A stretch of 63,032 nucleotides of DNA, filler included. It is 16 parts of 16 records of this genome, joined end to end, with 100 filler letters (N's around TTAATTAATTAA, not from the genome) between each part and the next. Parts side by side here need not be neighbours in the genome. Positions count along the whole stretch, not along the records: positions 25,130 to 35,366 come from SRR9188676_2279; 15 more parts are not named here. One strand, 5' to 3'. Positions within the stretch are counted from its first letter, which is position 1; each line of letters begins with the position of its first letter. The notes under the pieces are model-generated. The model was not told where the DNA came from, made no database searches, and saw only the letters and a program-made list of their open reading frames with translations. The position numbers were made by a program, and so were the translations under genes. Positions 17,618 to 57,229 of the stretch are shown one piece after another.

Positions 17618-19167
17618 CTGTACACAGAGAATAGAGCAGTATCAGATAACATTGACCCTTACATCTCGCGGCAAAACCATTGAAAAGATTGAGATTGCAG
17701 AAGACTGCCACAGAGAATACATGGAGTCCTGACAGGACGCCCTACAGTGCACTGAGAGGAAAGCACAAATAGAAATGGACCTCTCGTCCCCTCTATTTTT
17801 ATTATTTTTGCTAACTATAGGTAGACCTATTCTATGATTCACACTCACATTCTTGCTCATTTGTGGAAATTGATGATGATATGATCTATCTTATTTTGAC
17901 TCGAAACATTGGTGTTTATATTTTTTGGAAAGAAAAAGATCTGGGGAAGTCAAAGGAAAAAGATTTCGCGAGATGACTTAATTTTCGACTACTTTTCGCC
18001 CTCATGTGATCTACGATCAAAAGCATTTTGGGACAGCCGTATGCTCGCCTAGATGCTGGGTGAGACTCACACAGATCCTTACAATGTTTGCCTCTTTTGG
18101 TAAAGAAAATGGTGATTTTTAAGGCTGGAGGCTCCGGAAGGTGTTTTGAGCCGAAAAAGATTCGCCGCCCCTAAAGACACCCCAAAGAAGTCTCCAGCCT
18201 CTAATATTTCTTTTTGGAAGCTCTCTTAACATGAATTAACGGGAATTTCTGGACCACAAACCGTGATCTCAGCCAAATCAAAGCCGATTCAGTAAATATA
18301 CAACCTGCCGGTAGACCTTTGTCTTGGAGCTCATCGCACTTTGACTGAGTCTGACACATGGAGATAGTTTGTTCCGAAATTTCGAAAAAATCTCTTTTTC
18401 TCGGTGTTTTCCCACCAGGAATGACATTGATATAGCCTGGCTGTCACTGAATGCAGCGCCGTCATCATAGGGTGGATTCCCGCACCAGTTGAATTTTAGT
18501 CTGCCAATATTTTTCGCCGAGCGAAAGTGCCTCTTCAGGAATGCAGTTTCNNNNNNNNNNNNNNNNNNNNNNNNNNNNNNNNNNNNNNNNNNNNTTAATT
18601 AATTAANNNNNNNNNNNNNNNNNNNNNNNNNNNNNNNNNNNNNNNNNNNNAAATAAATAAATAAATAAGCTCATAATGAAATCAATAAATAAGGTCAGAA
18701 TATCCGATCTTAACAGAACGACCCAAGCGGAGGGGAGAAAAATGAATGTGTAGATTCACGAAAAAAAAGCAGCTAACTGGAAACAACGGAGCGAGAACTG
18801 GTTTCGCGATCTGATTTGCACAATGAATTTTGCGATGCTTTGGCAAATTTCATGCAAACCATTTGGTGCTCATTCATAACCGCTTATGGATTGGATCAAT
18901 AATCTCATTTGCAGTTACCGGGAATAATAGTGGGCGATCACCGATTCACCAATTTTTCAGCTGTTCTCTCCTCAAAAATCATCGGAACTGCGCAGATTCT
19001 AAACGAACTGAACTCAATCTCACATCAGGCCGCCACCAGGACAATACCTTCAACTTTCTCTTACATGTAGTAGAGTAACTTCCTGTGTATCTGAACCAAG
19101 CTGTGAATTACGCATGTCCAAGATAGTTATTTTGGCCAGGTGAGATAAGGAAAGAGGGAATGACATA

Positions 19168-21617: not shown

Positions 21618-22054
21618 GTTCGTCTCACATCCCAGCCACATACAGCAACCTTCGAACTATCCACGCTTCATATCGATATTTATTTGCGCGAACTCGCTGA
21701 ACTAGCTTAATTTCAGATTCTACTCCCTTAAATTCAGAGACAAAACTCAAATACAAGGTGTCCAAATTCTCCCAACATCTCCGAATCAAATAAGAAGACT
21801 TTGGGGCTTGGGCCCGCTGCATGTTGAGGGGATTCACGTATTCGAAGAGGAGAGTCACTAATGGTGAAGGTGAATGTAGATCAAATGTAGCTTGGAATCC
21901 CCCAAGCTTTTAGAGGCACGGGGTCCCTCTCTCCGCAGACTCCCCAAACTCCCANNNNNNNNNNNNNNNNNNNNNNNNNNNNNNNNNNNNNNNNNNNNTT
22001 AATTAATTAANNNNNNNNNNNNNNNNNNNNNNNNNNNNNNNNNNNNNNNNNNNN

Positions 22055-24522
22055 GGACGCAAATCCAGTGCCCGTTCTGTGATCTATCAACTTCTGTTGC
22101 TTCCACCATGATGAGACATCTTCATCAAACTCATACATTGAAGACTCCTATCAACCCATATGACGGAGCAGCATGCGAGACCACCTCCCCATTGGATGCA
22201 ACCTTTTCTGCTATACATCTGAAGAGACACATTTCTCGAACCCATTCATTGAAGACTTCCTACAAACCAGACCAACAAGCAGCAGCCAAGAATTTCTCCT
22301 CTCTTGAGCCCAAGCAGGTCCCCACACTATCAAACCAAGCACACATTCCCTGTCCCTACTGCGATACCCATTGCTCGAGCCGTTATAATCTCTCCACACA
22401 CATTTTACGAAAACACACCCACTCTTTTCCTCAATCCCCTTCCATTTCCTCTCCAGACTACGACGACGACAACCCCCGTCCTTCTCGTCTCCCTAGTCCT
22501 ACACAACACGAGCATATCTTCAGCCACACTCCCACTCAAGCGAACCCTCCATCTCGCCAATTTATTCCATGCCTGTATTGTTCCTGGCAGGGTTTTAACT
22601 TCAAGACCCTGCGAGCCCATTTGAACAAGCTCCATTCAACTGAAAAACTCATCGAAATTCGGCCCCCGTCAACCTCCCCTCAATGCAAAATATTATGCCC
22701 ATATTGTGACCGCAGCATTTTACCGTATAACCTTCACAGGCATATTCGGAAAAGTCATACCAGATCTGCCCCAAACCACCTCTCTCCATCCACCTCCCCA
22801 CCTTCTCTGCTCCCACACAAAATATCATGCCCTTATTGTGACCACATCAGCAGCCTGGACCACCATCTTTTCAGACACATTCGTCGAATACATGAGATAC
22901 GACTCCCAAACCCCCTCTCCCCATCCGCCTACCCACCTTTTTCTCCGCTCATCATTGAGATCGAAAGCAAGCACAACCAGAGCCTCACCAATCCAAAATC
23001 CCCTCGTGTCCCCCCAGCTCCCTCTGTTCGCCCATCAAACAAAGCATTATGCCCTTATTGTGACCTCTGCACCTACCCGAATAATCTCTTCAGACATGTT
23101 CAGAAGATACATGCCCTAACAACCCCGAACCCCAAGCCAAAAACCCCTCATGTTCCCGCTGCCCCTCGTGTTCCATACAAAACATTATGTCCCTTCTGTG
23201 ACCACATCTGCCGCTCGGAAATACTTCGCAGACATATTCAGAGAACGCATTACAGACCTGTGCGAGTACAATGCATCTTCTGCAATCATACAAACAGTCG
23301 TGTTGAACATATGTTGAAGCATATCCGGAGCCGCCATGCATTGAATTATTCGGAAAAGAAGCAACGTGCTTCAACTATCTCCCCGCCTGATATTATATAT
23401 ATTCGTAGACCACGCCGCACCCCATCATTACAGCCCAAATCCTTCTCCGATGGATCGGTCCCCAATTGCCCCATCTCTTGTCCATACTGTAAGTATCACA
23501 CAACTCGAGACGGCCAGCTACTCCTACATATTCAATCCAGGCACAACCAGGCTCGCACTATTTCTCGACAGTTGGCGACCCCTAGTGGTCCCCCGCAAGT
23601 GCAGTGTCCCTATTGCGACCTTTTCGGCGTAGAACAGCGCATTCTCAGACATATTCGAAAAACCCACACCCTCTCTGCCTCCAGTTCAATAGTAGAGCTG
23701 GTACACCGACCATGCGCTTTCTGCGACTATGGCAATTCCCAACCTGGGCATCTGATGAGGCATATACGCCTTAAGCATGCATTCACGACACCCAACATTC
23801 TACCTGGGACTACCTCATCAACACGTGCACGATCCCTCACGAAGCTCATCTATGGACAATGGCCTAAGCTGCCATCGGGGCCGATCTTCTCGTGCCCTTA
23901 TTGCAAACATCATGCTACTCAACATACGCAGCTCCGTATTCATATCCATCACCAGCACAGCCATTACTCTCCTGCACCGAAAGCGCCTCGTGATCATACT
24001 CCGTCTAAAACCCAATGCCCATATTGCCACTATATCGGCCCCCAGGATACTGTTCGAAAACACGTCAGAACAATTCACAATGTACTTCATAGTCAGCGAC
24101 CAGAAATCCAATGTCCATATTGTGCATTTGTCACATATTACTCTTACCTGTTGAAGCATCATGTGCGTCAAAGACATGCCAACATATCATCTTATATATG
24201 TCCCGTGTGTAATGTCAACCTTCGCACAAAAACCCGTTATAGCCTGCACATGAGATACATTCACCCTGATCTCTCGAAAAATGCACCATACCGACGTTCA
24301 TTGGAGCCTCATGGTTTCCATGATGATGATGATTCACTTGTAGATATGGATTTGGACCCTGACCTTGCTGATAGCGATACAGATTCATATTTTATGTCCC
24401 AAGAGCACAAATCCGCATCCTCATCTAAGCATGACGGTTCCAACGGATTCTGTTATAGCCATATGGATGCCACTCAGTTTTTGTGGGGTACATATTTTAG
24501 GTTCCCTTCCACTCCACAGTAG
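22055..24522 (+). CDS. Multi-C2H2 zinc-finger protein (15 intact fingers plus 1 degenerate), 5' partial, no visible intron
   Basis: Open from the contig start to TAG. Repeated C-x2-C-x11/12-H-x4-H units (mostly CPYC) with Pro/Ser-rich linkers and an acidic tail. Confidence 0.9.
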
Positions 24523-25129
24523 TAACCCATGCTAAACAAGCGGGTATGATATAATAAATAAATCGAACTATTCTCAACTCTTTCAGTCTATCATAGAGTC
24601 TGACACTACCACCGCATCATCATACGTCCATCCGAGGACCTTTTGACAACGGTTCAGATCGAAAACGACTTTCTTTTCCATAGAGTGGGGCCTAGTTATT
24701 GGTTGAGTCAAAAACACTCAAAAAATTTGCTTGGGGAATGATTGAATGATTGCCAAAAAAAAATCTAGAAAATTTCGAGATTTCCAGGGTGGTCCCTCAA
24801 GCTTCCACTAGCCAATCTTTCCCTTTACAACACTACAACTTACTGAGTGTGATTTACTCCATCAACAGAATTTGAAGATCAACAACTCAACAGTCATAAA
24901 ATTTGCCAATAGGAACACCAGGAACTCCTCACCGGGCGACTGTATCAGCTCACACTGGGCTGCTATCTCCTTCCTCGCGCATTGTCGCGCATAGAGTGGA
25001 GTTCGGGCTTTTTTGATTGATGTGACCTANNNNNNNNNNNNNNNNNNNNNNNNNNNNNNNNNNNNNNNNNNNNTTAATTAATTAANNNNNNNNNNNNNNN
25101 NNNNNNNNNNNNNNNNNNNNNNNNNNNNN

Positions 25130-28100
25130 CTCTTTGACCCTATCGCTGCCATCGGTGTCGGTAGAATTATAGGGTGTCAGGGCGAGAGCTACGCGGATAT
25201 CTTCTGTGGTAGTGGTAGTGGGGTAGGCTGAGAATTTCGCAGAGTCCGCACTTGCATAGAGGGAGAGCCCCAGAGAGACAGAGGTACTGGCCTTGCTGCT
25301 TTTGCCGTTATTTTCTTGCGTGTAGGATACCATGATCAGCGTGAAATCGACATCGCATTGTTGTGGTGGGGTCGCGCTAACTTGGCGATTTGCGGTCCCA
25401 AAGCCAAAGTCTAGACTCTCGGCGGACAGAGTCGCTCCATAGAGGCCATGGGACTGCACAGTAAGGGTAGTATCATTCTGGTACGAGGGGAGAGAATACT
25501 TGACTTTTCCAAGGAGCAAAGCAGACATACTGGACTTCATCACGAGCTTGGAGATGGTCTCAGAGCCATCTGTATCCGCATTCGGCTGCAATGTGAAGTT
25601 CAGTGCAGAAATGGTATCTTCGGTAGCTTCGACATTTTCTACATCTTGGAAGAAGCAGCCGTCGCTTTGGGCATTCAGAGCTACAGTGAGCGTGGTATTG
25701 TCACTGAGTGTCCAGTCGAGGCCATTGGCCTCCATGGAGAGCAGTGAGAGAGTGAGCACAAAGTCCACATCGCACTGGCCCATAGGGGTGCCTGACCCCA
25801 GAGAGGTGCGCATCTTGGACGTAAATCCCGTGCCAGATGCGAGAAGCGTAAAGATGCTCTCAGTCGGATCCGTAGTAGAGTTGTTATTAGTATTATCAGT
25901 ACCAGAAGAACCGCTTCCGGAGCCTGTGCCTGTGTCAGTACCATCATCATCATTATCATTGCTATCAGTAGTGTTGGTGGTAGTGGCACTTGTGTCGATA
26001 ATGCCAATAAATGCATAGGATGTTTCCCACACAGACGTAGGCGACACACTAACCAGTCCATCAGAGGGCTGGATCACAATTTGCCGAAGTGTATCAGAGC
26101 TATCAGAGTCTGTGGCAGCTAAGGGGGTGAACACAAAGGCAAAACTGAGATCCTCGGTGCATGTGGTTTGCGCAACCGTGATCAGGACAGGTTCATCACA
26201 TGCACCCTGCACCCCCACACCAACAGACTGTGATGTGCTGTACATGGCGTCCAGGCCGTTGAATTCTACAGAAATCGACCACACCGACAGAGTAAAGTCC
26301 ACATCGCAGTTGAAATTCGGCGACACAGAGAAGCTAGAAATGGAGCTTGATGCTGTGAATCCCGTGCCTACCGCACTGAGAGTGTAGATTTGAGAGAGTA
26401 GTGTGGACCGAGTGAATGATATCGATGACATGCGGATCTGACCAGAACCATAGAACCCGTTGATGCCACTTCTTATCACAAGCTTTTGCGTTTGCTGAGA
26501 AAGATCTGTGTCCGAAAAGAAGGTGCCCATAAGCGGGGTAATCAGCAACCTGACACGGATATCCTCTGTGGTGTTGTAGAATGGGTACACTTCGATTTCG
26601 GGGGCGTCGGCACAGGCACTGAGTGACACACCAACGGTCTGGCTGGTTGAGTATGCAGAGGAGTTCCCGTTTGCCTCCATGCCAATGACAAATGTGGTGA
26701 GCGTGAAGTCTTTATCGCATTGATGTGCTGCAGAGATGGACACTCCCTGGATTCTCGCATACGACGCAAAGCCAGTGCCCGGCGTGGCAGAGGTATTGAA
26801 CGCAGTGGTGAGGGCAAAAGCGGGTTCTGACAGGTACAGTTCCACGAGACGGTCGGAGCTATCAGTATCTTCATTCACCATGGGGGTAATGACCAAGAAC
26901 ACTTGGATATCCTCTGTCACTGCTGTGGAGTTTGCTGCGTCTAAATCAGGGCTATCACAGCGCGCAGTGAGGGAGATACCCAGGCTAGAGGAGGCTGCGA
27001 TGCTGTTTTTGCCATTCTGTTCTGTGGAGATCAAGTTCAGCGTGAGTGTGAAGTCAACATCGCACTGCACGGCGGGCGTGACGCTGGCACCAGGCACGCG
27101 CCGCGTTGGCGTGAAGCCGCTTTCGGCCACAGTGACTGTGTACACTCCTACTTGCGATAGAGAAACCGTCGAGACAATGCCCGAGAAGCTGAGGTATCCT
27201 GCTGCGCTGGCACACACCACAGAGAGCTTGCCCAGAATCTCTGAAAAGTCCGTATCAAGGCCAAGTGCAGGTGTGAATCTCATGGACACTTCACGGTCCT
27301 CGACTACACTTGTGGAAATTGCAGCGTTCTGGAACACGGGAGAGTCTGATTTTGCAGCGAGTAAGATGCCGTACTGCACCGGATCACTAGCACGCTGGTC
27401 CTTGCCGTTGGCCTCTGTGCTGATGGTGCGCAGGTTCATCGTGAAGTCCAGGTCACATTGCACAGCAGGAGACAGCATGAGGGTGGTGATGCCCACCCCC
27501 CAGGAGAAGCCCGAGCCCCACGCTGTAACAGTGTAAAACGGTGCCACAGTCGAGTCAAACGTGTAGAGCAGGTGCATGAAAGTCACGCGCGGCATCACAT
27601 CACCATACGCATGCAAATCCTGGAATGATAGCTTGGTGCATTGCTCAGAGCGGTCCGTATCCGCGAGCAAACTTGGAGTCATATACAGCGATATTTTCAC
27701 ATCCTCCAGAGTACTCGAGGAGCTTGCGGCAATCAGCTTCGGGACATCACCCTGCGCACTGAGGTACATGCGGATAGAGACAGAGGTGCTGCTGCTAGTG
27801 TGCCGTCCATTCAGCTCGGAGGCGACAACTTTCGCATGCCAAGTGAAGTCCAAGTCGCATTGCACAGCAGGCGAAATGCTGAGATTCGAGAGTAGCGCAC
27901 TAGGCGTGAAGCCAGAGGAGGTGCCCAACGCGCTAAGGGTGTACTTTGTGCCACTATACGATGAAACAGTGAACCTGGGCGCAGAAAAAGTCACGGCTCC
28001 TAACTCAGACAGCAAATATACTTGCAGCTTATACACCGAGTCTGAGGCGTCCGTGTCCACCCCCGCCCTGGGGGTAATGCGGTACGCTGTGGCAGTGTCC

Positions 28101-31100
28101 TCCCCTGTCTTGGCAGATGCTAGGCTCTGGAGAGAAGGCTGGTCCGAGATGGCACAGAGCGTGACTTGGTAGGACACAGTAGAGGATAATGCCGTTTTCC
28201 GGCCATTCGTTTCCATGGACCTCATGCGCACGGTGAGTTCAAAGTCAAAATCGCACTGCACGGGTGCAGAGAGAGAGTGGCTTGCGATGACCTTGCTGGA
28301 GGCAAAGCCCGTGCCAGCGAGGGTCAGAGTGTACCAGCGTGTCGCAATCGCAGACGTCGAGTACGCGATCGACGCGAAGCTGAGATAGTCAATTAAAGTC
28401 CCGTTAGTATCGCTTGAGTAGATCAAGGCCCGGAGCCGGTCTGAACCATCCGTATCTACCCCGAAAGTGGGTGACAGGAAGATGGATACTCGGCGGTCTT
28501 CAGTGGCAGAGAATATAGTCGTAGTAGCAGTACTAGTAGTAGGAGTGATAATTCTAGCAGCATCAGACACGGCATGCAGAATAACCCCGATCCAGGAAGT
28601 GGTGCTCGGGAATACATCTCGGTTGTTGTACTCCACAGCGAACGCGCGCGTGGTGATGGTGAAGTCGTTATCGCACTGCACCACGGCGCTCACGCTCAGG
28701 CTGCCCAGCTTCTTCCCCGAGGAAAACCCGATGGGAAGGGCGGTGGCAGTGTAGACCGTCGCGGCCTTCACTTGGTAAGACAACTCGCTGGAGAATGCCA
28801 TGGAGAATGTCATGAAGGGGAAGTTGTCGATGAGTCCCCGGACCATAAACCGATTCAGCCGCTCAGAGATATCAGTATCGTATCCAAAGGCCGGGGTAAT
28901 ATGTAAAGAAAATGAGGAATCCTCAGAACTAGCAGTGGAGAATACTGCGGATATCTTGGGCAAATCTGCATCTGCCTGGACCACGAATGCCACAGAAGAG
29001 CTAGAGCCCACAACAGGGTCCCTGCGGTTCTCATCAATGGCAACTAGGGCGACACTCAGTGTGAAGTCCAGATCACACTGTGTCACAGGCGATGCACTCA
29101 CGGCGCGAATTCTGGTTTTCAGCCCAAATCCTGTGCCGTGACAGGTCACGGTGTACATCAGATTCTGCTTCACGAAGCTCAGGCCTGGGAAGTAGTTGGT
29201 GTTGATGCTCAGGCTGAAGTCCCTGGATTGGCTGGAGACCAAAATCCGGCGAATCAGCTCAGATCCATCTGTATCGTGCATATAGAAGGGCGTGGCTGTG
29301 AGGCTGACACTCATATCTTCGGTGCTGAAAGTGGCGAGAGTAGCCAGCACTGAGACATCAGCCACTGCGGATACTGCAACTGCCAATGGCTCAACAGCCG
29401 ATGCTCTTGCATCTTTACCGTTCTCCTCTACAGACAGGATTCGCATACTTAGCGAGAAATCTGTATCGCACTGCGTCACGGGGCTCCAGCTGAAGGATGG
29501 CACAATTTCACCCGAGGCAAAGCCGCTCCCGGTGATCGAAACCGTGTACACTGCGCCGTCATTCTGCGATGTGGTAGACCTCAGAGCTGAGAAAAACATT
29601 CCCGAGAGAAGCTGCGGGTATGCACTAGCAAAGGACAGCTTGCGCAGCGCATCAGAAGCATCGGTATCGTCCAACAACAGGGGGGTAATCGACACGGTGA
29701 TTTTGCGATCCTCGAGCGCAGAGGTTGTAGAGTAGTACGAGTAGGGGATATCAGCACATGCAGGGATGAGCACGGCAACAGACACAGAGCTGGAGGCGCG
29801 CTCGGCTTTCCCATTCACCTCCTGCGTGATCACGCGTGTGAGTAGTGAAAAGTCGATATCGCATTGCAGGGCAGGCGTGAGGCATAGCCCTTGCATAGGC
29901 GTGTGGGATGCAAACCCGCTGCCGGATGAAGAGCATGTGTAGGATGTATTCGACGCACTTCCGAGCATCGTGATGGGCCGATAGACCACATAGGGGATAA
30001 TGGGCTGAGTGCTATCGGAGAATGACACCTTAGTAATCCGCTCAGAGACATCTGTATCGTACCCAAAGGCAAGCACCACACTCATGGACACTGAAATGTC
30101 CTCTGTGGTTAGAAATACTGCCGGTGCCACGTGAGGCTCATCAATCAGTGCTGAAATGGCTACCCCCAGGGACAGCGAAGTAGATTTGCGCGTGTCTTTC
30201 ATGTTTTCTTCGACTGTGATCACCCGTGATGAGAGCGTGAAATCCACATCGCAGTTTGCCATGGGGCTCATGCTCAAATCCTGGATCAGAATGTCGGACG
30301 CGAACCCAGAGCCGAGAGAAGTGATGGTGAAAAGATTGGAGCCATGTCCCGGGTAGGACTCGAGATGAGTAAACGAAAGCGCCGCAGCAATGGCGCCATT
30401 ACTCGCAATATACATGATTTTGCGCAGTCGGTCTGAGGCGTCCGTGTCGAGCCCAAACTTCGGTGTGTGGTACAGTTTTGCAGAGAAGTCCTCTGTGGTA
30501 GCCAGAGTGACTAGCTTCTGCGCAAAGAACGGTGTATCCGAGCACGCAGAGAGAGGCACAGCCATGGAGAGGGTGGTGCTTTCTTCGACATCGCGGTTAT
30601 TCCGCTCGGAGACGAAGATGGAAGCCGTCAGCACAAAGTCAATGTCGCACTGGTTCGACGCACTCACAAAGAAGTTGGATAGCCGCGCACTGGGTGAGAA
30701 CCCCGTGGTGGTTGAGGACATGGTGTACAAGGTGCCTGATTTCCCCGTCTCGGTGCTGACGGAGTAGTGCAATGCAGAAATGGACCGGACGGAGATTTTG
30801 AAGAGCTGCTCGGAGAGATCCGAGTCTGGGCTTCGAAAGGGCGTGACAAAGAAGGGTACGATAGTGTCCTCGGATGCAGAGGTCATGGAGTCCATCTGCA
30901 AGAATGCTGCATCGGATACACTCGAAATCATCACTGCGATGGATAGGGTTGTGCTTGACCGAATGGACTTGTTGTTTTCCTCGACGACAAACAAGGACAA
31001 TGTGAGCGAAAAGTCCACATCGCACTGCCAGGACGCGCTAGTGCTGAAGTAGGGCACCAGTTCTGAGGACGCGAAGCCTGTGCCTTGCGCTGTGAGCGTG

Positions 31101-34100
31101 AAGAACGAGCCTTGAACCGTGCTGCTGCACTCAGAGAGCGAAGTGAACCGAATGTGCGAAATCACGGGCGAGAAGAGGCTCACTTTGCGCAGCGGATCGG
31201 ACAGATCAGTGTCCAGTCCAAACGCGGGAGTCATGCGTAGCACTACTCGAATATCCTCGGAAGTATTCGACGACGACATGGCACTAATATCTGGCATATC
31301 GGCACTGGATATGATCTGAATGCCCAAGGATTGCGACGTGCTGGAGATCTGGTCATGTGAATTGCCTTCCACGCTGAACACATTCGCCGATAAAGTGAAG
31401 TCCACATCACACTGGAAGGCAGCACTCATGCTGAAGGAGGAAACTTTTGCCCGCCAAGAAAAGCCAGTCCCAGGCATGGTAACAGTATAGGCAGAACCAA
31501 GTAATAAAGACACTGAGGAGGAGGGCACATGAGAAATCACATTCCCAAGCATCACGTGTGTGAGGCGCAGCTTCAAAAGCGCATCCGAAAGATCCGTGTC
31601 CGCCCCCGATAACGGCGTGATATCCAATCGGAACTGAATGTCCTCTGTGCTGAGTGTGGAGGAGAGAGCTTGGATCGAGGGCTCGTCGGCTCGCGCATGG
31701 ACATTGAATGCAATGCTAGTTGTGGCACTGAATGCCTTGTTGACATTGTTGCGCTCAAAGTACAGGCCCTGGAACGTGAAGGTGAAGTCCACATCGCACT
31801 GCACCGCAGGGCTGATGTAGAAGTTTTGCTGCCCGACAAAGGGCGCAAAGCCACTCCCAAACACTGTCAATGTGTACCGTGGGCTTGTAAGCTTGGAGAT
31901 GGACAGTGAGGGTGCAGAAAATGTCACCTTGTTGGAGATATCGCGCACAGAAATGGACGGTGACCGCTCGGAAAGATCGGTGTCCACGAGGAGCGTTGGA
32001 GTCCACACTAAGGAGATTTTGCTATCTTCTGTGGCCGCGGTTAACGCAGGGACCAAAAACACACTCGGGTCGCAAACTGCAGTGATTTTCACCCCTGCAG
32101 TGTGCGAAGGCGACTTGAAATCATCCTTGCCATTGGCCTCGACGCTGATGAATGTCGCAGTGAATGTGTAGTCCACATCGCACTGCACCGCAGAGCTCAC
32201 ACTCACTGCTGATATGAGTTTTCCAGAGGTAAATCCTGTCTGGACGGGTCCTGTGATGGTGTAGAAATCAGAATCGAGCGCGAGAGTTGCACTGACAAAG
32301 CTGAACGTTCTCTTGTTGATGTTGGATGTCTGAAAGAGCACTTTGATGATCTGGTCAGAATTGTCCGTGTCTGTGGTTTGGAAGGGAGTTAGCTTGATAC
32401 TGTGAATGATATCCTCAGTGGTCGAGTACGAGTTTGTGATCGAAATGAATGGCTTGTCAGTCACGGCTTGGATGGAGAATCCCACAGTAATTCCACTCGA
32501 ATGCATATCGAGCCCGTTGGCTTCCACAGAGGAAAAGAAAATGGACAGGGTGAAGTCGAGGTCACATTGCACGAGCGGACTCACAGACAGAGAGGCGAAG
32601 AGAGCAGAATTCGCAAAGCCAGTGCCATGAGAAGTGACAGTGAACACACCAGACGCAACCGAGCTAGCCAGACCAGAATTCGAAGGGACGTGGAAGCTCA
32701 AGGATGTGATGTGAGAGTGCCGGGTAAACATAGTCCGCAGGTCCTCAGAACGATCTGAGTCGATAGTGTGGGGAGTTACCATTAGGGGCGCAAAAAGATC
32801 CTCCGTGGAACTGGTGCTCGAGATGGACGTGATGACTGGGAAGTCGGCATACGCCTGCCAGACAATGCCGATGGACAGAGAGGTAGAGATGGTCTTTGCA
32901 CGCCCGTTTTCCTCAGCGCCTGTGAGCTGCACACTGAGCGAGAAGTCCACGTCACACTGTGCAGAATGTGACACGCTTAGCGCGAGAATCTGCGAGGATG
33001 CGAAACCCGTGCCCAGCGCCGTGAGCGTCATGAGCGAGGAAGCAATGGAGGACGATGTTAGCGGGATCGCAGCAAAGGTCACGAGCATGGGTGTGGTTGT
33101 GGTCACGAGTTTGCGCAGTCTGTCAGAGGCATCTGTGTCGATGCCAAAGACCGGTGTCGCGCGAATTTGGAATTTCATGTCCTCTGTGGCCGTCGAAAAG
33201 GTGAGCTGAATCGACGGCTCCTCTCCCACAGCCGAGATGAGGATCTTGACGGTTGCGGAGGTGCTGATCTCAGGATCGCGCGTGTTCTCCTCGACACTGA
33301 CAGAGTACACTTTCAAGCTGAAGTCCAGGTCGCACTGCACACTGGGTGTGATGCTGAGCAGCTTAATGCGGGCATTGGTGCCGAATCCCGTGCCTCGCGC
33401 AGACAGGGTGTAGATAGTAGTCGCAATGCTGGAGGTGGAGTACGTCAGCGGCTTGAACGTCGAGAACTCTGGCACATTGATGACTGCGATACTGCGCAGC
33501 CACTCTGAGCGGTCTGTGTCCGCCCCGCGCGTAGGGGTGATTAATAACATGGCTTGGAAGTCCTCTGTGGTGCTAGTGGTGGCAAAGCAGCGTACAGTGG
33601 GTGTCTGTGCCACGCCCGTGATCATGACGGGTACTTTGGTGGCTGTGGCGCTTCGGGCGTCCTTGCCGTTCTGCTCGGAGCCGAAGAGTCGCATGGTGAG
33701 TGTGAAGTCGACATCGCACTGCGGCCACGGGGACACAGAGAAATCCTTGAGTCTCGCCAAGGGCTGGAAGCCAGTGCCACCCGCAGTGATGGTGAATGTG
33801 GTGCTCACACGGAGCACAGAGGACCCAATGGTGGAAAAGGTAACGGAGGTTATTACTTTAGACACCATAGATAAGATACCGAATCGCTCGCTCTGGTCCG
33901 TATCGACAGATCCAGGAGTTAGCAGCAGTAGGGTTTTTCTGGATTCGGTGGTCAGCGTGACAGGGAAGCCAATACTAGGGGTGTCCATGGCCGTCGTGAC
34001 CTGAATGGCTATGCTTTTTGTGGTGCTCACTGAGGATGATGAGTATTGATTGTTCTCGCCGGATATGCACTTGATGCTGAATGTGAAGTCCAAGTCACAC

Positions 34101-35139
34101 TGCGCGACCGGACTCAAACTGAAAGTGGAAAATTTGGCAGCAGTTGCGAAGCCAGTGCCGCTGGCTATGAGCGTGAAGGTAGTCGAGGCAGCTGCAGATG
34201 CCATGGCAGAAATGGACGGGAAGCGCACCCCCTGGGGGATGTTCGTCAGCACGGCTTTGACAAGAACCTCAGACCCATCCGTGTCCAGGCTATCGGTGCG
34301 AGTCGGGGTGGCTGTGAGCATCACTTTCACATCCTCTGTGACCACAGTGCTGGTGCCTGTGGCAAGCGTGGGCTGGCTCGAGAGTCCAATCACAGCAATA
34401 CGCATTGTGGTAGAGCCCGATGCTTCATTCCCATTATTCTGCTCCACAGAGTACAGAGTTGCTGTGAGGGTCATGTCCACATCGCAATTCACTGCAGGCG
34501 ACAGTGAAAAGGAAGTGAATTTCCTCAAGGGGGTGAACCCTGTGGACGATGCTGAGGTCACGGTGAATAGTGACGCTGTCTGCGCATAGGTGCCCCCAGA
34601 GTTGAACATGAAAGTCACACGGGAAAGTACCCCTCCAGCAGGGGTATCGTGGACTTTCAGCTTGTGCAGAAATTCTGAAGAGTCTGTGTCTGTGAGGGCG
34701 GGAGTTGCAATGATGGCTATTTTCATGTTTTCGGTGGTGGTCATGACGCTTGTAGAGAGAGTAGGGCTATCAGTGACTGATGTGAGGGATACCCCGAGGC
34801 TCTGTGTGGTGGACGCAGACTGATCGGACTTGAGAATCACGAAGCTGAGTGTAAAGTCCACATCGCAGTTCACAGTTGCAGAAACGCTAAGTCCAGAAGT
34901 GAGCAGCTTGTGGGTGAATCCCGATCCCGTGTGGGTTAGGGTGTAGAGGGTGGCGGCTAGCGTGGACACTGTGCTCGAGAGCGCTGAGAATGACACGTGT
35001 GAAGACGGCAGCTGCTTTGCAACAAGCTTGTGCAGCGTTTCGGAGGTGTCGGTTTGTGCCAGTGCCGGTGTGAGCCGAAGCGATACGCGGTGATCCTCGG
35101 ATGTGCTGGTTGGTGAGATCACGGACAGCTGGGGGGACT
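25130..35139 (-). CDS. Giant Ser/Thr-rich repeat protein with at least 25 tandem ~128-aa Ig/cadherin-like repeats; one >10-kb exon, partial at both ends
   Basis: Uninterrupted ORF with 25 copies of (Q/N)CDxD(F/Y/M) about 385 nt apart. Unit consensus AxxDxP...TED...TP...DTDxSE...YTxTxxGTGF...SPxxQCDxDFT...ExN. A pyrimidine tract and CAG acceptor at 35140-35142 mark the exon start. Confidence 0.9.
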
Positions 35140-36061
35140 CTGTGAATAGAAAAGAGGGGGGGAAGATGAAGGCAATTAGAATAGCAGAAGAAGTAGAAGA
35201 ATGGGATAGATTCGGAGAGATAGAACAAGATGAGAGAGGTAGCGAAAAAAAGAAAGAAATAGGGGGGGAGTTGTGAATCACGAACGCGAAGTAGAATAGC
35301 CGGAAAGAGTCACATCATCATCATCATTTATTTATATCCACAACTAACGAAAGTACGCGTGGATAANNNNNNNNNNNNNNNNNNNNNNNNNNNNNNNNNN
35401 NNNNNNNNNNTTAATTAATTAANNNNNNNNNNNNNNNNNNNNNNNNNNNNNNNNNNNNNNNNNNNNTCGAATTTTTCAGAGTCAAAATAAATCACGATAA
35501 AATAACTGACGTCCTTCGGATAGTCCTCGGTGCCGCGACCTTGGGCTCTCCTCGGAAACCTGACACTCATTTTAAAGTACGAAAGCTAGTACAGGAACAC
35601 AGGGTGTCAATCGAAAGATAAGGTCGTTGCTTTTTTTATATCCAACTTTAGCCCTATCATCCTCTCAAGAGAAACATTCGAGATTTAATATCGCTTTCCT
35701 CTGTCTACACTACACCCCTCAAGAGAAACACCTCATTTCGAATATCTAGGACCCGACCTGACTCGAGGGTGCCCAAGAACCTGCAGTCTCACTTTCATCG
35801 TATTTCAACGTTCGCTAAAAGCAGGTTAGGGACGCGACGGTTAAACCCAGTTTCACCCTTTTAGCGAAAGGAGGATTACGTGAGGGTCGGTTTGATTTAC
35901 GGTATGAATGGGTCAAACCGACCTTAATCGATATTCTCATTAGGCTGAAAGGGGTGTGAGCGGTTAGGAAATCACAGGCTCTCTCAGAGCTCGGCGGGGA
36001 GCTCATCTGCGTCCGATAGCCAGCTGTGATGGGTGGAAGCAGAGGTAGGAAGAAAGCTTAC

Positions 36062-37367: not shown

Positions 37368-38504
37368 ATGGCTAGTAGCATTTCTGTTGATGCACTTCTG
37401 AGCTTTGCTCCAATGTAGTTCTTGCTTTCGTTGCATGAAATTCAACCGCTCACTCTTTCTTGATAGTTCTGATGAGGTTCGCTATCATCTCAAGCAAACT
37501 TATGCTTGTCTGTCGCTGATGATGGTCTCTGCTGCTATGGGTACATATTTCTATATGTTGGTATGGCGCTTCCTCTTCCGATACACTATTTTTACAAGAG
37601 CTGATCTGCACCGTTGTTTTTCCTACTCTATTCAAAACCACGTCCAATTTTTAACAAGATGTTAATGCGCTTCTGACTGTGCGTCCTTGTTTCAACTCGT
37701 GCAGACTCATGTTGCACCGATAGCTCTCTCGCTTGCATGCCTCGGATGTTTAATGTGGTCAATGAATTTATCTGTGTATCAGTCACCACAGCAAAAGTTG
37801 CTTGCAACCCTTGCTTTTGCTTTCTTCAAAGGCGCCTCAATTGGGTCTCTTGTTGAGTTTGCTATGTTCATTGACCCTATGTAATTTATTTTCTTCTGTT
37901 TCAATACATCATGTACTCACAATGATGTAGGATTGTCCTCAATGCTCTGCTGGGTACTATGGTTGTGTTCCTCTGCTTCTCTGGGAGCGCTCTCTTTGCC
38001 AAGGTATCCCTTCACCTCGCATCCCTTCTGGCTCATCGATTCTTTGAACTTTCTGTTGTAGCGTCGATCATATTTGTTCCTCGGTGGTATCCTGGCAAGC
38101 GGCATCTCGCTGCTTGTGATGCTCTCCCTTTTCAATATTTTCTTTAGGTCTGTTCAACCATCTTTCGAATCGTTTGGATCGACTCATCATGTTTGGTTGT
38201 TTGTACAGGCTTCCAGGTGTATCATTCCTTCAGATTTATGGAGGTCTTTTGATCTTCAGTGGATATGTCATCGTTGATACTCAACTCATTATCGAGAAAG
38301 CATCTCATGGCAAAGCCGATTATGTCTCGCATGCCGTTGAGCTTTTCATTGGTCAGAATTCTATCGAACTATTTCTCTCTCTTCGTGAAATTGACTTCTT
38401 TTATTTCTTTGTCGTTAGATCTTGTTGCGATCCTCGTGCGAGTCTTGATTATATTGATGGATCGGGAGAAGAAGAGAAAGCAAAACTCCAACAGCAGGCG
38501 CTAA
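37368..38504 (+). CDS. BI-1: Bax inhibitor-1 (TMBIM6 family), complete, multi-exon
   Basis: MASSISVDALL...VRYHLKQTYACL...FAFFKGASIG...VFLCFSGSALFAK|RRSYLFLGGIL...IFSGYVIVDTQLIIEKA..G..DYVSHAVELFI|DLV...RVLIILM, a basic tail, then TAA. Confidence 0.93.
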
Positions 38505-38774
38505 ACAGCACTATAGAGCGAGGTTTCAAGCTGCTGATGAGCAACAACTGACAACAACTGTCAAATAGTTTAATGCCGTTTGATGCCGTAAATATAAATC
38601 CCCTTCAGAAAAGCACCGTGGTACATGGAAAGTCGGAAGTTTTGTTCCAAGAGTTTCAAGTTTTCAGCCAGCACCAGCCAGCACGAGTTAATAAATGAAC
38701 CGACGAAGCCACTTCTCTTGTTCTCACGCAAAAAGAAATGAGAACTGTAAAAAATTGTTCATTTTCACATTTTA

Positions 38775-39617: not shown

Positions 39618-42600
39618 GAAGACTTTCGTATGTCGAGGATCGCAACAGATCTGTTTAGGAGTTTGTGAGGACAGAGGTCTTGCACAAGCGTTCGAGAGCT
39701 TCGNNNNNNNNNNNNNNNNNNNNNNNNNNNNNNNNNNNNNNNNNNNNTTAATTAATTAANNNNNNNNNNNNNNNNNNNNNNNNNNNNNNNNNNNNNNNNN
39801 NNNTCCACCTAAAAATGAAAGTGATGCAAATAAGCAGATCTCTATATTGTACGATAAGTTCGCGTTGCAAGAGGAAGATAATGATCTTGGAATTACCATC
39901 GTCTGATGGAACTTCATCGTGGTAAGCATCATCCTCGATCACAGCCACACAGGCCCGCCGCCAAAGGGTATGCCGCTACGCTAGATACTCAGGAAAAATA
40001 CTCTAGAGAGGTGATTATAAGTGTTACCTGTTGCAAGACGCTGTTTCTCATTCCATATACAATTATAGCAGCTACCACGTGGATGAGCGCCAGGGCTTAA
40101 ATTTAGCCAGAGCGTCGTAGTATGATTCTTGCTAGGACTTTGATAGAATAAAGCTCGGATTCTTCATGGCTAAATCCAAATGTAATGATGCTGTTGTAGA
40201 CAATACAAGTTGTCAAACAAGATGTGCAGTATTCAGAAGATGTGTGCACATTAGTTTCAGTTTTCAGCCTTTTCATTAAACCTTGGACAACACCGGATTT
40301 CCATGATGTGAAATGCCCACGGTTTCTGGAGACTTTTTTGATTTGTCACTTCATTTGACTGGTGGAAATGGGAACCTTCTCAAAATGTGAGTCTGGAATA
40401 TTCACTGTACACAGACAACAAAGAGCTTGTGGATATTAGATTTGATTTAGCTTGTGAATAACTGAAGAAATACCAGCGATCAGAGGCGCCATTTTCATTT
40501 CCAGGAGAAATGTTTCAGGGTTGAAAATTTTGTGAAAGCGATTTGATACGTGAGTCTCCAATTGTCACCAATCTCATCCAATGTCTTAATTTTGCCTCTT
40601 TCCCCCAGTGTCGTACGCATTTGTGAGGAGTTATTTACCTTGGGGATCTGCTACCTTTTGCGATTCTTGTATTGGAACGGTCTGAAGAAGGGAGCTTTTG
40701 AGGAACTGCTCGCGTGGTATAGGATCACAGACTCGGATTCAGAGAGTGGTGGAGGTCTAGGTCGTCACATCTGAGTCGCATAGAGAGGAGGTTTTGAGGG
40801 AAGATCCTTTCGAGAGAGGAGAGAGTGTCGAGTGAGCCAATATGTTTCGTTTTTTGCATGTAGCAGCACAGAATCCGTCTCTCAAGTCGCGTTTTGTGTC
40901 TGCATCGCTTCCGTCCCTGCCGGACCTACCACCTCGTTGAAGTTGTGACAGATGTCAAAGCGGGAGGTGAGACAGTCCTCTTCCGAGTGGATTGAAAAGG
41001 GGAATAGAGGGGCGGTGGGAGTGCCCATCGGTACTGCAGGCGGCAGGTTCTCAGATCTCACGTATCTATCACATTCCTCTCATTGTATCTAATAGGAGAT
41101 GTGAGGAACCGGGGTGGCTCGTGCTGGGACCAATTCCTGGTATTCGGCCACATGAATAGTGGATTTTGGTTTTGAAAGAACGTGGAGGGGTTGTTCTTCG
41201 GCACCACTCGTCGGTACTCAGATCGATCTGATGCGAGAATTTAGGACTTAGATTCGGAGAAGCTTCGGAAAATCCATGGCAAAAAATGCACAAAAGGCTG
41301 TTTCGAATGAAAGGAAGATGAATTTGCGGCTAATGTTCTGCCTTCCCGTGGTTATCAAAGCCAACAAAAAATGTGCCGGACACGACATATTCCTCAAGCA
41401 ACTTCAACGAATTTTCATCAAACCGCCGAAACCGTGATTGAGGACAAGGATATGACGAGATGACGATTTGGACACATGCAACAACTTTCTCTTGAAAGAA
41501 CCCCGTCGCCTCGCTCGCTTGATTACTATTTACAAATTATTCCTCAGATGACTGATCGTAATTTTAAGAGGTACTTATCCGGATTGGTCGTCCACTGTTT
41601 GAACATATCTCCCCTCTCCAGGGATGTACTACAATATAAAACCCATCTGAATCCTAGAGGACGTCTTACTAGTCTTTCCTTTGAGCGCTCGGATGATTCT
41701 ACTTCATTGTTTCTGAGTTAATTTGAGGACTCTCCTGCGCAGCATTCTTGAAGTAGAACCTCCCTAAACCAGTCATAATTACATAGTCATCACTGTTGTG
41801 TAGAAAAAGGAGAAAGTCCAAAGAAAAGGAAGAAATAACACACAGAAATGGGTAAATAGAGAGATTTTTGAACTGAAAACATTCTTGAGTCTTAAACTCT
41901 TTTCGATTCGCATATGAACCGCCTTTGCTCACATCCCAAATTGCGATGTAGCGGGAGGTAATTAATTCAGATAGTACCTTCAGCATTTCGGCACGGAATT
42001 GCTCTCTCGGCCTCACCCCTCATCTTGTGTTTCTTCGTACTCTTTAGCCTGTGGGGTACTTTTTGACTGGAGTATTGTTAGACGAGAACATCTCGCTCTC
42101 CTCCATGTAATACGAGGAGAAAACATCACAGGAGACAAAAGCACTAGCGCGGGGATGGGATGCCTGTGTGTACGAGAAACTTCCCATCCAAGAGATCTGC
42201 ACCAATGTTATCACCTTAAATTTTGATAATAAGGGGAGGCTTGCAGTGGGCTTCCCCCTAGCAGATTCTTCCCTCTGAAATCGGAATAGATCGCTGAAGA
42301 CGGGGGGGGTCCCCAACATCCGAAAAGGCCTACAATCCACACACAGAGCCTTTTGTACTTAGCGAGGCACCTGGTTTCCTGGGATATCTGTGCTGATACC
42401 TGTCCCCACATTTCATCATGACACTTTCCTTTCTTTGACACAAATGCTGCATTCATTTCTGGGGAGTATTTGATCGTAGCTATAGGGCTTGGACCTCCGG
42501 AAATCTCGGTCCAAAACTCCGATGCAACTGGTGTGGCTGTAGAGTGCCTGTGCTGATGGTTGGCGGAGCTGGGATGGACCGAAAGTATCAGGAGGTTGAC

Positions 42601-43757
42601 TGAAAGACCTTTCTGAGAAACTGCGGGAGGATTTTCAGAAAGATATCCTCGGGCAGAAGGCTCAGTAACAGTTCCCGCAGGAAGTCCCAGCAAATGTTCG
42701 GACAGCGGCAAACTGGGGCAAAGACGGTCAAACCAGAGGCATTTGAATGATTGGGCGGCGTATAGAAATATAGTATTTACTCATATGACCATCTTCATCT
42801 GATAGTTGAAGATCCACACGTGTGAATCCCTAAAAATCGAAAATCAGAAATTGATCTGACATTTTTTACTGTGTGAGCTCATTTCCCGCCTCATTTTTCC
42901 CGCCTGTAATGAATCACCTGAATATCCGAACGAGCTTAAGGCAAGCTACACAGAATGATTCAAACCCAACATTCTGATTTTTCAGATCAGAAAGACATTT
43001 TTTACTGTGCTTTGATGGAATTAAAACGAGGGTAAAAAAAATCAATTCGACCAGAGAACTTCCCCCCCCCCCGCCCTCCCCCAAGGTCTGCTTTTTGACA
43101 GGGATCGACCCATATGAATCGAACCCGCACACCGAATGCGGTTTTGTCGGATCGATGTGGGGTATGATAAATGGACTAAATGAGCTGCTAGAGACTCAGA
43201 CCAAAAAGTGAAGCCCTAAAAATCATAAATAAGAACCATTCCAGTAAAAGCCAAGGAAGTTCGAAGAGAAGTCAGTCATTTTGATATGAAAATATCCAGA
43301 GCGGAAATCAATACTAGAAGTCCCCTTCACGGATGAACTGATGAGCNNNNNNNNNNNNNNNNNNNNNNNNNNNNNNNNNNNNNNNNNNNNTTAATTAATT
43401 AANNNNNNNNNNNNNNNNNNNNNNNNNNNNNNNNNNNNNNNNNNNNTATAGTATCTACTAATAAACACTATTTGTTGTGATGGGGGGTGTAAACAAGTCA
43501 CAAGTCATTCCTTGAAATGTGAGACGTTCAAGGTAGCATAAGGCAGCCTGATGAATTAGAATATTCCGTTTTTTCTGTACTATTTGCCTCTGGTATCAAT
43601 CAAAAATCGGAACAAAAATTGAATCACACGAAATCCAAAAGTCCAGAAAGTCCGTGTTCACGAGTGTTTATTACTTGTCATTAAGAAGGAGAAAATCAAA
43701 ATTACGACGCATTCGGACACCACACCACACCTCAAGAGAGAACAACAGAACATCGAC

Positions 43758-46120: not shown

Positions 46121-47163
46121 ATGGCTTTTTCAAAGACTTGTGCCATTGACAATGTGCTAGAGAAGCTTCAGAAGCTGACTGACGAACAGATCGCTGACTG
46201 TGATCGCGAGTTTTCACTCCATCTCGACTGGTTACGTGAAACGATTCAGTTTAGCACAAAGTCAAGCTTTAAGAGGTAACCTATCGCATATTTGGATTCT
46301 CGAATGATTTCAATTGATTGCTGATGTTTGGTGTTGATGATTATCAGGGGTGCTGGGCTTGTTTGCCCTCCATCTACAAGAAAAATCAAAAAGTCTCGAA
46401 CCGCTCTCGAAACATCTTCCTTAGATTTGCAAAGTAATGACCAACCAGGTATCAGCACGACTCTTGATTTCTCGCTATCTCCCGTGCGCCAAGGTTGGTC
46501 ATCACATCTTCACCAACGACAACAGCTGACCTGTCCCTGTCGAAACTAGATGTTCCAAACTTTTCGACACAAGAAGACACACAAAATAATCTTCTTGCTA
46601 ATGCAAGCCAGTCGGTACCTGTGATGGAGTCGGATTCTCACCAACCTGTGGATGTCGAAATGATCGAGGTAAGCAGACTTTTTTCGAAGCCTTGCGACCT
46701 AAGAATTATTCATAAAAGATCCACATATCATATACCTCTCTTTTCTCGTTTTTTCTGCCTTCTCTCTCTCCATTCTCTTCGTAAAAAGCACCCGTATGAG
46801 ATCACATCACATCTCAATTTTCTTCTTTTCTTTTCTTGCCTTGTTTTTTCAACTCTTAGCCTGAATCAACTCCGATGATGGTGGAGCCAATTCTAGAAGT
46901 GTCAACTCCAGAGGTCACAGCACCTGTCCCTCAGGTACCTGAGCCTGTTGAGGTTCAACAGGAACAGCCACTGCCACAGAAGCCAGCACCCAAGAAGAAA
47001 GCCGTGGAGAAGAATAAGAAGCTTGACATTGATGCCAACATCGACCGCCTAATTGGGCTGAGGTGGGACGGCAGATGGAAGGAGTATTTGGTCAAGTGGA
47101 AGGACAATGTCGATTTGGATGACTATCCTCCTGAGACTTGGCTCAAGGCGCGAGAAATCCATG
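46121..47163 (+). CDS. Protein with INCENP-like N-terminus and a chromodomain, 3' partial
   Basis: Four exons from ATG 46121: ...FSLHLDWLRETIQ...GLVCPPSTRKIKKSR (INCENP_N-like), a P/E/S-rich linker, then IDRLIGLRWDGRWKEYLVKWKD...PETWLKAREI (chromodomain). The chromodomain call is firmer than the INCENP call. Confidence 0.65.
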
Positions 47164-57202: not shown

Positions 57203-57229
57203 GTGCGTCACCACACTGCATCTCCACAC

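Follow-up and report, generated by a model that had tools for sequence, protein, structure and literature searches.

The 63,032-nt window analysed here (the whole stretch of DNA introduced above) contains a contig of 10,237 nt, at positions 25130-35366 and with a GC content of 0.53, which is filled from end to end by one feature: a minus-strand array of adhesin-type repeats, translated here as protein P0002. The feature is real coding sequence of tandem immunoglobulin-like (Ig-like) repeats. The first-pass observation is confirmed and its interpretation supported. Judged by its sequence relatives, the contig probably holds part of a Rhodelphis nuclear gene, which belongs to a repeat expansion specific to that genus. 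The rhodelphid lineage most likely acquired the repeat module once, from a bacterium, and P0002 probably contributes to a long fibre on the cell surface that is made of this bacteria-derived module. Rhodelphids, predators that feed by phagocytosis, form the sister lineage of red algae. They are informative about feeding in the ancestor of plants and algae, and next to nothing is known of the molecules on their cell surface.

The minus-strand frame is open from 35281 through the contig end at 25130. Within it lies a single open exon (25130-35139) that is incomplete at its 3' end and encodes P0002 in 3336 stop-free codons. The exon continues past the contig end, which makes its length of over 10 kb a minimum. 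P0002 comprises 25 complete Ig-like repeats of about 128 residues and one cut repeat, and the motif CD.D[FYM] recurs in it 25 times at a spacing of 115-178 residues, mostly 125-134. With units delimited at the D.P linker, alignment of the 25 (A1) gives a mean column identity of 32%, individual units being 27-44% identical to the reference unit, and the first-pass annotation's count of at least 25 diverged units of this length is thereby upheld. All units lie on the minus strand: units 1-5 at 34766-35131, 34370-34765, 33980-34369, 33599-33979 and 33218-33598; units 6-10 at 32837-33217, 32450-32836, 32063-32449, 31679-32062 and 31292-31678; units 11-15 at 30905-31291, 30527-30904, 30137-30526, 29747-30136 and 29354-29746; units 16-20 at 28958-29353, 28535-28957, 28136-28534, 27740-28135 and 27335-27739; and units 21-25 at 26948-27334, 26600-26947, 26189-26599, 25655-26188 and 25238-25654. 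The truncated 26th repeat (25130-25237; ...TTTTTEDIRVALALTPYNSTDTDGSDRVKE) is cut by the contig end, and an artificial linker comes next. Repeat 24 reaches 178 residues through a low-complexity insertion of about 45 residues (Thr, Asn, Asp, Gly and Ser) within the domain; it sits between middle strands and is the sole large insertion of the array.

Conservation within A1 is concentrated in a small set of columns: E12, D29, S31, T65, F73, C90, D91 and D93 are invariant, and D13, T21, P22, D27, G72, F94, E104 and N106 are conserved at 90% or more. The acidic motifs called near-invariant on first reading stand in part. TED-like, DTDxS[E/D/Q]-like and ExN motifs occur in 25, 24 and 23 of the 25 units, while AxxDxP is weaker, its D.P core being present in 13 of 25 units as cut, where the unit cut splits the motif in some. 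That reading had missed TP, GTGF (18/25) and the strongest motif of all, QCDVDF (25/25), and the string PP.NF.G.F.L.V that it quoted is absent from P0002; bacterial relatives carry TPPxNSDxDFTLTV at this place.

At the DNA level there is no array to be seen, Tandem Repeats Finder returning only seven trivial rows. Repeats too diverged for detection in DNA point to an old, diverged array and not to assembly duplication or artefact, and an open frame of 3336 codons, with motifs kept in every unit although the DNA repeats are undetectable, argues for real coding sequence. P0002 is rich in Ser and Thr (27.7% together) and acidic (316 Asp and Glu residues vs 190 Lys and Arg). Curated families do not recognise the whole protein: Pfam gave nothing meaningful (PapG_C and LisH_2, both at E 0.28), NCBIfam gave 0 families, and the cadherin model PF00028 had no match. 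A match to a well-known eukaryotic repeat family, which the first-pass annotation had said would refute its reading, is not seen, neither to eukaryotic cadherins nor to any other Pfam family. Neither the RTX motif (G[GAS].G[NDS]D) nor a HemolysinCabind match occurs in the 3336 residues available, the C-terminus lying beyond the contig.

At its 5' end the exon begins where a spliceosomal intron would be expected to stop. A putative 3' splice-site AG (35140-35141, minus strand, CAG|AG) is preceded by a polypyrimidine tract at 35142-35201 (85% C+T over 60 nt) and followed by a second AG at 35138-35139, which offers an alternative boundary of NAGNAG type and places the exon start at 35139 or 35137. 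The remaining 227 nt of the contig (35140-35366, minus strand) are read as the 3' end of the intron, with a GC content of 0.41 vs 0.53 for the whole contig. There is no in-frame ATG upstream of unit 1, and the in-frame translation there is not repeat-like. The boundary falls in an inter-domain linker, so placed that unit 1, a well-formed repeat, begins right at the AG; the first Met of the frame comes only in unit 2. Within the same assembly, mapping of transcript P0153 onto the DNA of another contig (18651-21954) defines two acceptors of a kinase gene, each with a T/C-rich tract followed by CAG or a similar AG, and the acceptor upstream of the repeats looks like these transcript-verified ones. 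The spliceosomal-type acceptor noted at first reading is thus present as sequence, and splicing at 35139 or 35137 is likely. A search for database proteins of near-equal length to P0002 surfaced only P0003 and P0004.

The kinase contig also indicates whose genome this is. It bears, on the minus strand, an intron-containing gene for a CaMK-like protein kinase with exons near 20632-20450, 20256-19705 and 19358-19158, and a 92-residue exon of this gene is 100% identical to the EukProt transcript P0153 and 93% identical to Rhodelphis marinus m.23028, the next match reaching at most 63%. These identities indicate that the assembly is a Rhodelphis; the TRINITY-style name of P0153 has the format of R. 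limneticus entries, and R. limneticus is the most likely species.

Membership of the repeats in a Rhodelphis family can be followed through the CDxDF motif. With a profile built from the 25 units, 466 proteins score at E<=1e-3; at E<=1e-10 there remain 239, and at E<=1e-30 there remain 73. The best 150 of the 466 were inspected. Among these, the Cys-bearing CDxDF form occurs in 25 proteins, each a transcript of R. marinus or R. limneticus, and is absent from all 124 non-Rhodelphis proteins. No other eukaryote's name stands on any of the 35 proteins looked up. P0002 has the unit of about 128 residues with TED...TP...DTDxSE...GTGF...QCDxDF...ExNG (18-25 of 25 units, according to motif) and groups with the Rhodelphis repeats; it is 33% identical to P0005 over 3076 residues, and its Ser/Thr-rich make-up matches the Rhodelphis transcripts, not the bacterial consensus. 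A second contig of the window (57684-59695, minus strand, 2012 nt, GC 0.57, one open frame of 670 codons) is a paralogous fragment in which four repeats of the CDxDF family are full and a fifth is degenerate; it is 32-34% identical to P0002, and its final 150 or so residues are unmatched by the repeat profile. In titles and abstracts, without supplements, of the literature on Rhodelphis and on transfer of RTX adhesins to protists, no description of these giant repeat proteins was found. The eukaryotic origin claimed at the outset accords with the Rhodelphis-only branch in which the repeats fall (see below) and with an intron-like upstream end resembling verified acceptors.

The matches outside Rhodelphis come from bacteria or metagenomes and are giant proteins that keep the order of the motifs. 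Their consensus reads AVADAP...EDT.I.L.I...L.DTDGSE...TPP.NSD.DFTLTV...TE..NG (A3 consensus; for example, P0004 of Ca. Magnetoglobus), and the lowest whole-protein E-value for a named bacterial protein (6e-96) belongs to P0012, an "Ig-like domain-containing protein" of Halobacteriovorax. By regular expression, 38 of the 124 carriers lacking the Cys have at least three RTX-like motifs. When eight bacterial carriers were scanned, two had RTX nonapeptide repeats and six had at least one of Cadherin_4, Cadherin_5 and Big_9 (tandem-95) elsewhere in the protein, and no model covered the repeat region itself at threshold; the bacterial repeat is without a curated family model of its own. Bacterial genomes representing GTDB species hold at least 585 confirmed stretches, the best 80 of which are mostly from Alphaproteobacteria (Azospirillum, Rhodospirillales, Micavibrio, Microvirga) and also include Planctomycetota, Gamma- and Betaproteobacteria and a Parachlamydia metagenome-assembled genome (MAG). 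Carriers of the bacterial form include the predators Micavibrio and Halobacteriovorax, the Parachlamydia MAG, many Azospirillum, Rhodospirillales and Phycisphaerales. Aligned with hhalign, the window profile matches the bacterial profile with a probability of 99.4% and an E-value of 3.3e-21 over 113 columns; the bacterial set was chosen with the eukaryotic profile, which favours a match, and the whole-library E-values are independent of that choice.

Curated models come close to these repeats without reaching them. A broader alignment (A2) has 82 rows: 24 window units, 19 stretches of 19 Rhodelphis-type proteins and 39 non-Cys stretches taken as bacterial. P0049 was counted as Rhodelphis by look alone, here and in the tree described below, and the other 18 Rhodelphis-type proteins were looked up. 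Weak matches were given by 22 of the 82 repeats to tandem-95, 9 to Big_9, 7 to Cadherin_5, 5 to Cadherin_4 and 2 to T1SS-143 (T1SS: type I secretion system). For Cadherin_4, Cadherin_5, Big_9 and tandem-95, all A2 matches fall below the curated cut-offs (best, tandem-95 at E 3.8e-6), and whole P0002 has none of the four at E<=1, nor has window unit 10. The two members matching T1SS-143 (TIGR03660; best E 0.0051) do not include window unit 10, and a single member matched the cadherin model PF00028 (E 0.016). Neighbours in the ESM Atlas are bacterial clusters of the Cadherin-like, Big_9 and tandem-95 families, with scores of 0.90-0.93 (weak). The bacterial repeat family appears to form the stalk or extender of giant surface proteins, many of them RTX/T1SS adhesins, and the Rhodelphis repeats are homologous to it. 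The label "bacterial-adhesin type" was therefore well chosen, given the profile matches, the hhalign result, the RTX-bearing carriers and the sequence match to the solved extender 9CSE described below. Less apt was "undescribed system", since what is present is rather a domain family inside giant surface proteins.

A phylogeny of single repeats, proposed as a check by the first-pass annotation, places all Rhodelphis sequences together. The FastTree tree, unrooted, contains 177 repeats over 134 columns: 25 and 4 from the two window contigs, 44 from Rhodelphis (at most three per protein) and 104 bacterial (one per protein). Repeats not covering positions 10-124 of the hidden Markov model, further repeats of each protein and unit rows with X were left out. 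A single branch, with Shimodaira-Hasegawa-like (SH-like) support of 95, divides the 73 eukaryotic rows from the 104 bacterial ones, and all 29 window repeats lie on the Rhodelphis side, intermixed with repeats from transcripts. This single branch supports one transfer, not its direction; the direction from bacteria to rhodelphid is suggested by the presence of the repeat in several bacterial phyla vs one eukaryotic genus among the inspected proteins.

Structure prediction agrees with the sequence relationships. An AlphaFold2 model of one unit based on the 25-unit alignment was poor (predicted local distance difference test score, pLDDT, 45.9) and was discarded in favour of one based on the 82 rows of A2, in which unit 10 is all-beta with 12 strands (pLDDT 93.5; predicted template modelling score 0.84). 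The single unit is thus modelled confidently as a beta-sandwich, the fold that the first-pass annotation had expected in models of repeat pairs. A search of PDB sequences with the window-only profile found nothing below E 0.2, and the A2 profile found one solved match, 9cse_A, at E 1.2e-8 (profile positions 17-113, chain residues 213-310). VIA-align placed the same chain at rank 4 of 48,161, with Z 9.8 and a root-mean-square deviation of 2.9 A over 107 residues, spanning 4174-4458 and so both halves of the domain; the three ranks above it are cohesin modules (Z 10.2-11.0). A Foldseek search of the PDB yielded only unspecific matches of cohesin and Ig type, with cohesins first at E 6e-4, and 9CSE was not among the rows shown. 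According to the available text of the source, 9CSE is an Ig-like split extender plus RTX-like domain of AhLap from Aeromonas hydrophila; the first strand of the split domain lies before, and the remainder after, the inserted RTX-like domain, and bacteria employ the module in the stalks of adhesins (PMC12077191). Split extenders are described as sharing the Ig-like extender fold (bioRxiv 10.1101/2025.09.30.679566). By its sequence and structure matches to 9CSE, the unit is thus an unsplit relative of the RTX-adhesin extender with a cohesin-like beta-sandwich.

As the P0002 fragment lacks either end, its role has to be read from paralogues, with domains taken from Pfam and hydrophobic segments from a crude 19-residue hydropathy window. 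In R. marinus, P0016 has the layout of a receptor kinase: the repeats (3-871) are followed by EGF_CA (990-1028), by a hydrophobic segment (at 1053) and by a protein kinase (1449-1716). P0050 opens with a signal-like N-terminus and has 12 EGF stretches, its repeats occupying 864-1245 and a hydrophobic segment lying at 2280. P0003, also with a signal-like start, has 8 repeats together with filamin and GEX2-type Ig domains and ends in a TRP-like multi-pass region; the protein has 5 hydrophobic segments. P0010 of R. limneticus begins with a signal anchor and the repeats follow directly. Such layouts indicate that the module is extracellular in Rhodelphis, and the extracellular placement first claimed fits the R. 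marinus relatives, which hold the repeats between a signal-like N-terminus and a membrane segment.

The conserved acidic residues suggest how such a chain might be stiffened. In the unit model, E12, D13, D27, D29, S31, D91, D93, E104, N106 and D127 lie in strand-end loops; by strand order, E12/D13, D91/D93 and the D127 linker would be at the C-terminal pole and D27/D29/S31 and E104/N106 at the N-terminal pole. Acidic residues at opposite poles of a tandem array would meet at each domain junction, where Ca2+ should be bound and should stiffen the chain as in cadherins and RTX extenders.

Our best explanation, which we hold to be probable as a whole, is that of a Rhodelphis gene with a module of bacterial origin that makes a Ca2+-stiffened surface shaft. 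The nuclear gene, most likely of R. limneticus, would contain one internal exon longer than 10 kb, in which 26 or more Ig-like (cohesin-like) beta-sandwiches are encoded in tandem. Its module would derive from the stalk of a bacterial giant adhesin, would have been acquired once and then multiplied and diversified in the rhodelphid lineage, and would have become joined to eukaryotic modules (EGF, filamin-type Ig, protein kinase and a TRP-like membrane domain). The array itself would most likely be the shaft of a surface protein anchored in the membrane: long, extracellular, acidic, rich in Ser and Thr, probably glycosylated, and stiffened by Ca2+ at junctions to which TED, CDxDF and the D.P linker contribute at one end and DTDxSE and ExN at the other. 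Such a shaft could keep a functional part, distal or proximal, at a distance from the membrane, where it would serve to adhere or to recognise prey or substrate. On this explanation P0002 would be expressed, rod-shaped and located at the surface, and a role in adhesion or recognition is plausible.

Several observations weigh against this explanation. Both protein ends are absent from the contig, so that signal peptide, anchor and tip domain lie beyond it. The contigs of the window are unlinked to one another, and the GC content of the repeat contig (0.53) departs from the value of about 0.43 in most of the others. Among database proteins that share sequence words with P0002, no transcript of its gene turned up, P0007 at 34% identity being the best of the shorter matches. 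Identity between P0002 and database proteins is highest at 38% across 561 residues (P0010) or, on a shorter stretch of 108 residues, at 48% (P0142); with no identical transcript, assignment of the contig to Rhodelphis rests on clade and assembly membership. Codon usage compared with other contigs, on small and noisy samples, correlates at r 0.17-0.25 in relative synonymous codon usage with the zinc-finger and kinase open reading frames (ORFs) and at 0.66 with the paralogous contig. Inspection of the best 150 of 466 profile matches leaves scope for further eukaryotic carriers, and the tree is unrooted, made by FastTree on 134 columns, with bacterial rows picked by a eukaryote-derived profile. 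For the junctions, the available text on 9CSE places Ca2+ "especially" in the RTX solenoid and not explicitly in the split domain (PMC12077191).

Two alternatives deny that the contig belongs to Rhodelphis at all. It might be a fragment of an ordinary bacterial RTX/T1SS adhesin gene swept into a eukaryotic assembly; its higher GC content, its lack of linkage to a eukaryotic gene and the abundance of the repeat family in bacteria would suit this, as would the bacteria, including Aeromonas sobria, described in the available text as contained in rhodelphid cultures (PMC12495952). Bacterial contamination is nonetheless barely credible when 29 of 29 window repeats fall on the Rhodelphis-only side of the tree, when CDxDF, present in 25 of 25 units, occurs in 0 of the 124 non-Rhodelphis proteins, and when a frame with no start codon opens mid-array right after a pyrimidine tract and AG, downstream of 227 AT-rich nt. 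The lack of RTX motifs in 3336 residues and a Ser/Thr richness like that of Rhodelphis transcripts point the same way. A different owner could be another eukaryote of the culture, such as kinetoplastid prey: kinetoplastid genes are preceded by a pyrimidine tract and AG, which would here mark a trans-splicing site, and the contig and the whole CDxDF family would both be the prey's. Rhodelphids are indeed grown on eukaryotic prey such as Parabodo caudatus, according to the part of the source available (PMC12495952), and no identical Rhodelphis transcript of P0002 was found. We consider this very unlikely, because no ATG follows the AG (unit 1 is well formed from the AG onwards and the first Met comes in the second unit), because the family is in the datasets of both R. 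marinus and R. limneticus, with 0 of 35 proteins named for another eukaryote, and because the acceptor here resembles those verified through a transcript that is 93% identical to R. marinus. Nor does the gene look like an unexpressed relic, be it a pseudogene fragment or a misassembled repeat. That no transcript was found and that the contig is cut at both ends would fit such a relic, yet a stop-free frame of 10 kb with motifs kept in every unit argues for purifying selection, and units only 27-44% identical to the reference indicate that assembly collapse or duplication is not at work; we rate it highly improbable.

Other alternatives accept a Rhodelphis gene and dispute its history or its use. 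The domain could be an ancient, vertically inherited Ig- or cadherin-like one that was lost or has diverged elsewhere, or could have passed from eukaryotes to bacteria. An unrooted tree with only one branch between the groups would allow either, and the weak A2 matches to the broad cadherin-like/Big_9/tandem-95 superfamily, as well as the inspection of only 150 of the 466 profile matches, lend this some support. Set against it are at least 585 stretches across several bacterial phyla vs one eukaryotic genus among the proteins looked up, a P0002 that matches no eukaryotic cadherin or other Pfam family, and a motif order and length specific to the bacterial repeat, and a history without bacteria-to-eukaryote transfer thus seems unlikely. 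We attach appreciably more weight to a different job for the protein, although it too is the less expected outcome: the array, instead of being an adhesive rod, may belong to a signalling protein (receptor kinase or TRP-like channel) as its sensing ectodomain or its tether, or may be a component of a structural coat or of flagellar hairs. In paralogues the repeats are indeed combined with a kinase (P0016) or with a multi-pass domain of TRP-like type (P0003), and the available text reports that rhodelphids bear mastigonemes and that prey is attached by an apical region proposed as a receptor (PMC12495952). A fragment without ends distinguishes none of these roles, and the known bacterial use, so far as that source describes it, is in adhesin stalks (PMC12077191). 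Rhodelphis ownership, a single acquisition from bacteria and a surface shaft thus remain our preferred explanation.

Rhodelphis has a large and diversified family of giant surface proteins made from a domain otherwise known in bacterial adhesins, with paralogues already wired to eukaryotic signalling domains (kinase, EGF repeats and TRP-like domain). These are concrete candidates for the attachment or recognition step that precedes phagocytosis, and they would provide a clean case of a bacterial extracellular module domesticated through introns, domain shuffling, a Ser-to-Cys change and Ser/Thr enrichment. The kind of module is already known from bacterial adhesins; what is newly noted is its Rhodelphis CDxDF version, not a new system. 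More tentatively, an adhesin stalk module captured once may have become the main block of free fibres such as that of P0002, of receptor kinases and of TRP-like-channel tethers by which prey is touched, recognised and held, a broader proposal that we think possible but would not expect to hold in full. Should it be true, a eukaryotic prey-recognition apparatus would be partly built from a bacterial adhesion part.

The surroundings of the repeat contig offer no genomic context. The window is made of 16 separate contigs of 2.0-10.2 kb each and is not one piece of chromosome; its artificial joints are of 100 nt each (44 N's, TTAATTAATTAA and 44 N's, with no strand), joints 1-8 at 6822-6921, 10983-11082, 13638-13737, 16342-16441, 18551-18650, 21955-22054, 25030-25129 and 35367-35466 and joints 9-15 at 39704-39803, 43347-43446, 47281-47380, 49603-49702, 55250-55349, 57584-57683 and 59696-59795. 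Since unlinked contigs have been concatenated, gene order and neighbourhood across the joints are void as context for the repeat gene, and the remark that most exons of the window are under 300 nt, offered at first reading as a contrast, has no bearing because it refers to other, unlinked contigs. Among these, a contig of 2975 nt is mostly taken up by an intronless zinc-finger ORF (22108-24522, plus strand, 804 residues) packed with C2H2-type fingers, which in Pfam matches zf-Di19 (E 2.7e-25) and zf-C2H2_2. The contig at 55350-57583 has a GC content of 0.605 and an Ala/Ser/Thr/Pro-rich ORF of 412-420 residues (56161-57399, plus strand) with no Pfam match. The eukaryotic gene pieces on unlinked contigs include an F-box ORF (Pfam) and, by eye from translations, exons of ABC-transporter, Bax-inhibitor-like, PIG-M-like and chromodomain-like type; such pieces lie at 53429-54208 (minus strand) and at 11289-11624, 38120-38551, 48102-48518 and 46860-47237 (plus strand).

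P0002 can be compared with several known families. The best structural matches, cohesins of cellulosomes and of Clostridium perfringens glycoside hydrolases (2W1N, 2VO8 and 2O4E; Z 10.2-11.0 over 121-123 residues), are only 7-8% identical to the unit and give no sequence signal, so that the likeness is one of fold and implies no shared function. Classical cadherin repeats would work in a similar way: they too are tandem beta-sandwiches whose ends carry conserved acidic motifs, and in P0002 as in cadherins a linker of D.P type would bind Ca2+ between domains. P0002 differs in having no PF00028 match. To the bacterial Cadherin-like, Big_9 and tandem-95 families (PF17803, PF17892, PF17963; NF012211), individual repeats show matches that are weak and consistent, and the P0002 repeat is some 30 residues longer than the 95-residue tandem-95 repeat. 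Further relatives are the giant EukProt proteins of Rhodelphis, P0005 (7451 residues), P0006 (6213), P0013 (7655), P0003 (4959), P0010 and P0008: these uncharacterised transcripts have the CDxDF subfamily in common with P0002, are 31-38% identical to it over hundreds to thousands of residues and have repeats intermixed with its own in the tree, and none of them is the P0002 gene.

On the bacterial side, the unnamed repeat of about 110-130 residues from Alphaproteobacteria, Planctomycetota, Halobacteriovorax, Ca. Magnetoglobus and others agrees with P0002 in motif order, length and predicted fold. Identity between the two is 18-28%, one supported tree branch lies between them, and the Cys of CDxDF in the Ser/Thr-rich P0002 stands where bacteria have the Ser of SDxDF. 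Their carriers have also been elaborated differently, the bacterial ones adding RTX, Cadherin_4/5 and Big_9 and the Rhodelphis ones EGF, filamin, kinase and TRP-like domains. RTX adhesins include the one solved relative found by sequence. P0002 shows no RTX beta-roll, retention module or T1SS signal in the 3336 residues available, its C-terminus and the upstream exons lying beyond the contig, and a T1SS is not expected in a eukaryote. Like RTX adhesins, it has tandem Ig-like extenders, 26 units that are homologous to AhLap 9CSE, the sequence match including the motif I.A.LTD.DGSE. The P0002 domain differs from the AhLap one in being unsplit, in having no inserted ligand-binding domain and in standing in a eukaryote behind a putative intron, whereas both would serve alike as tandem beta-sandwich stalk modules of giant surface proteins.

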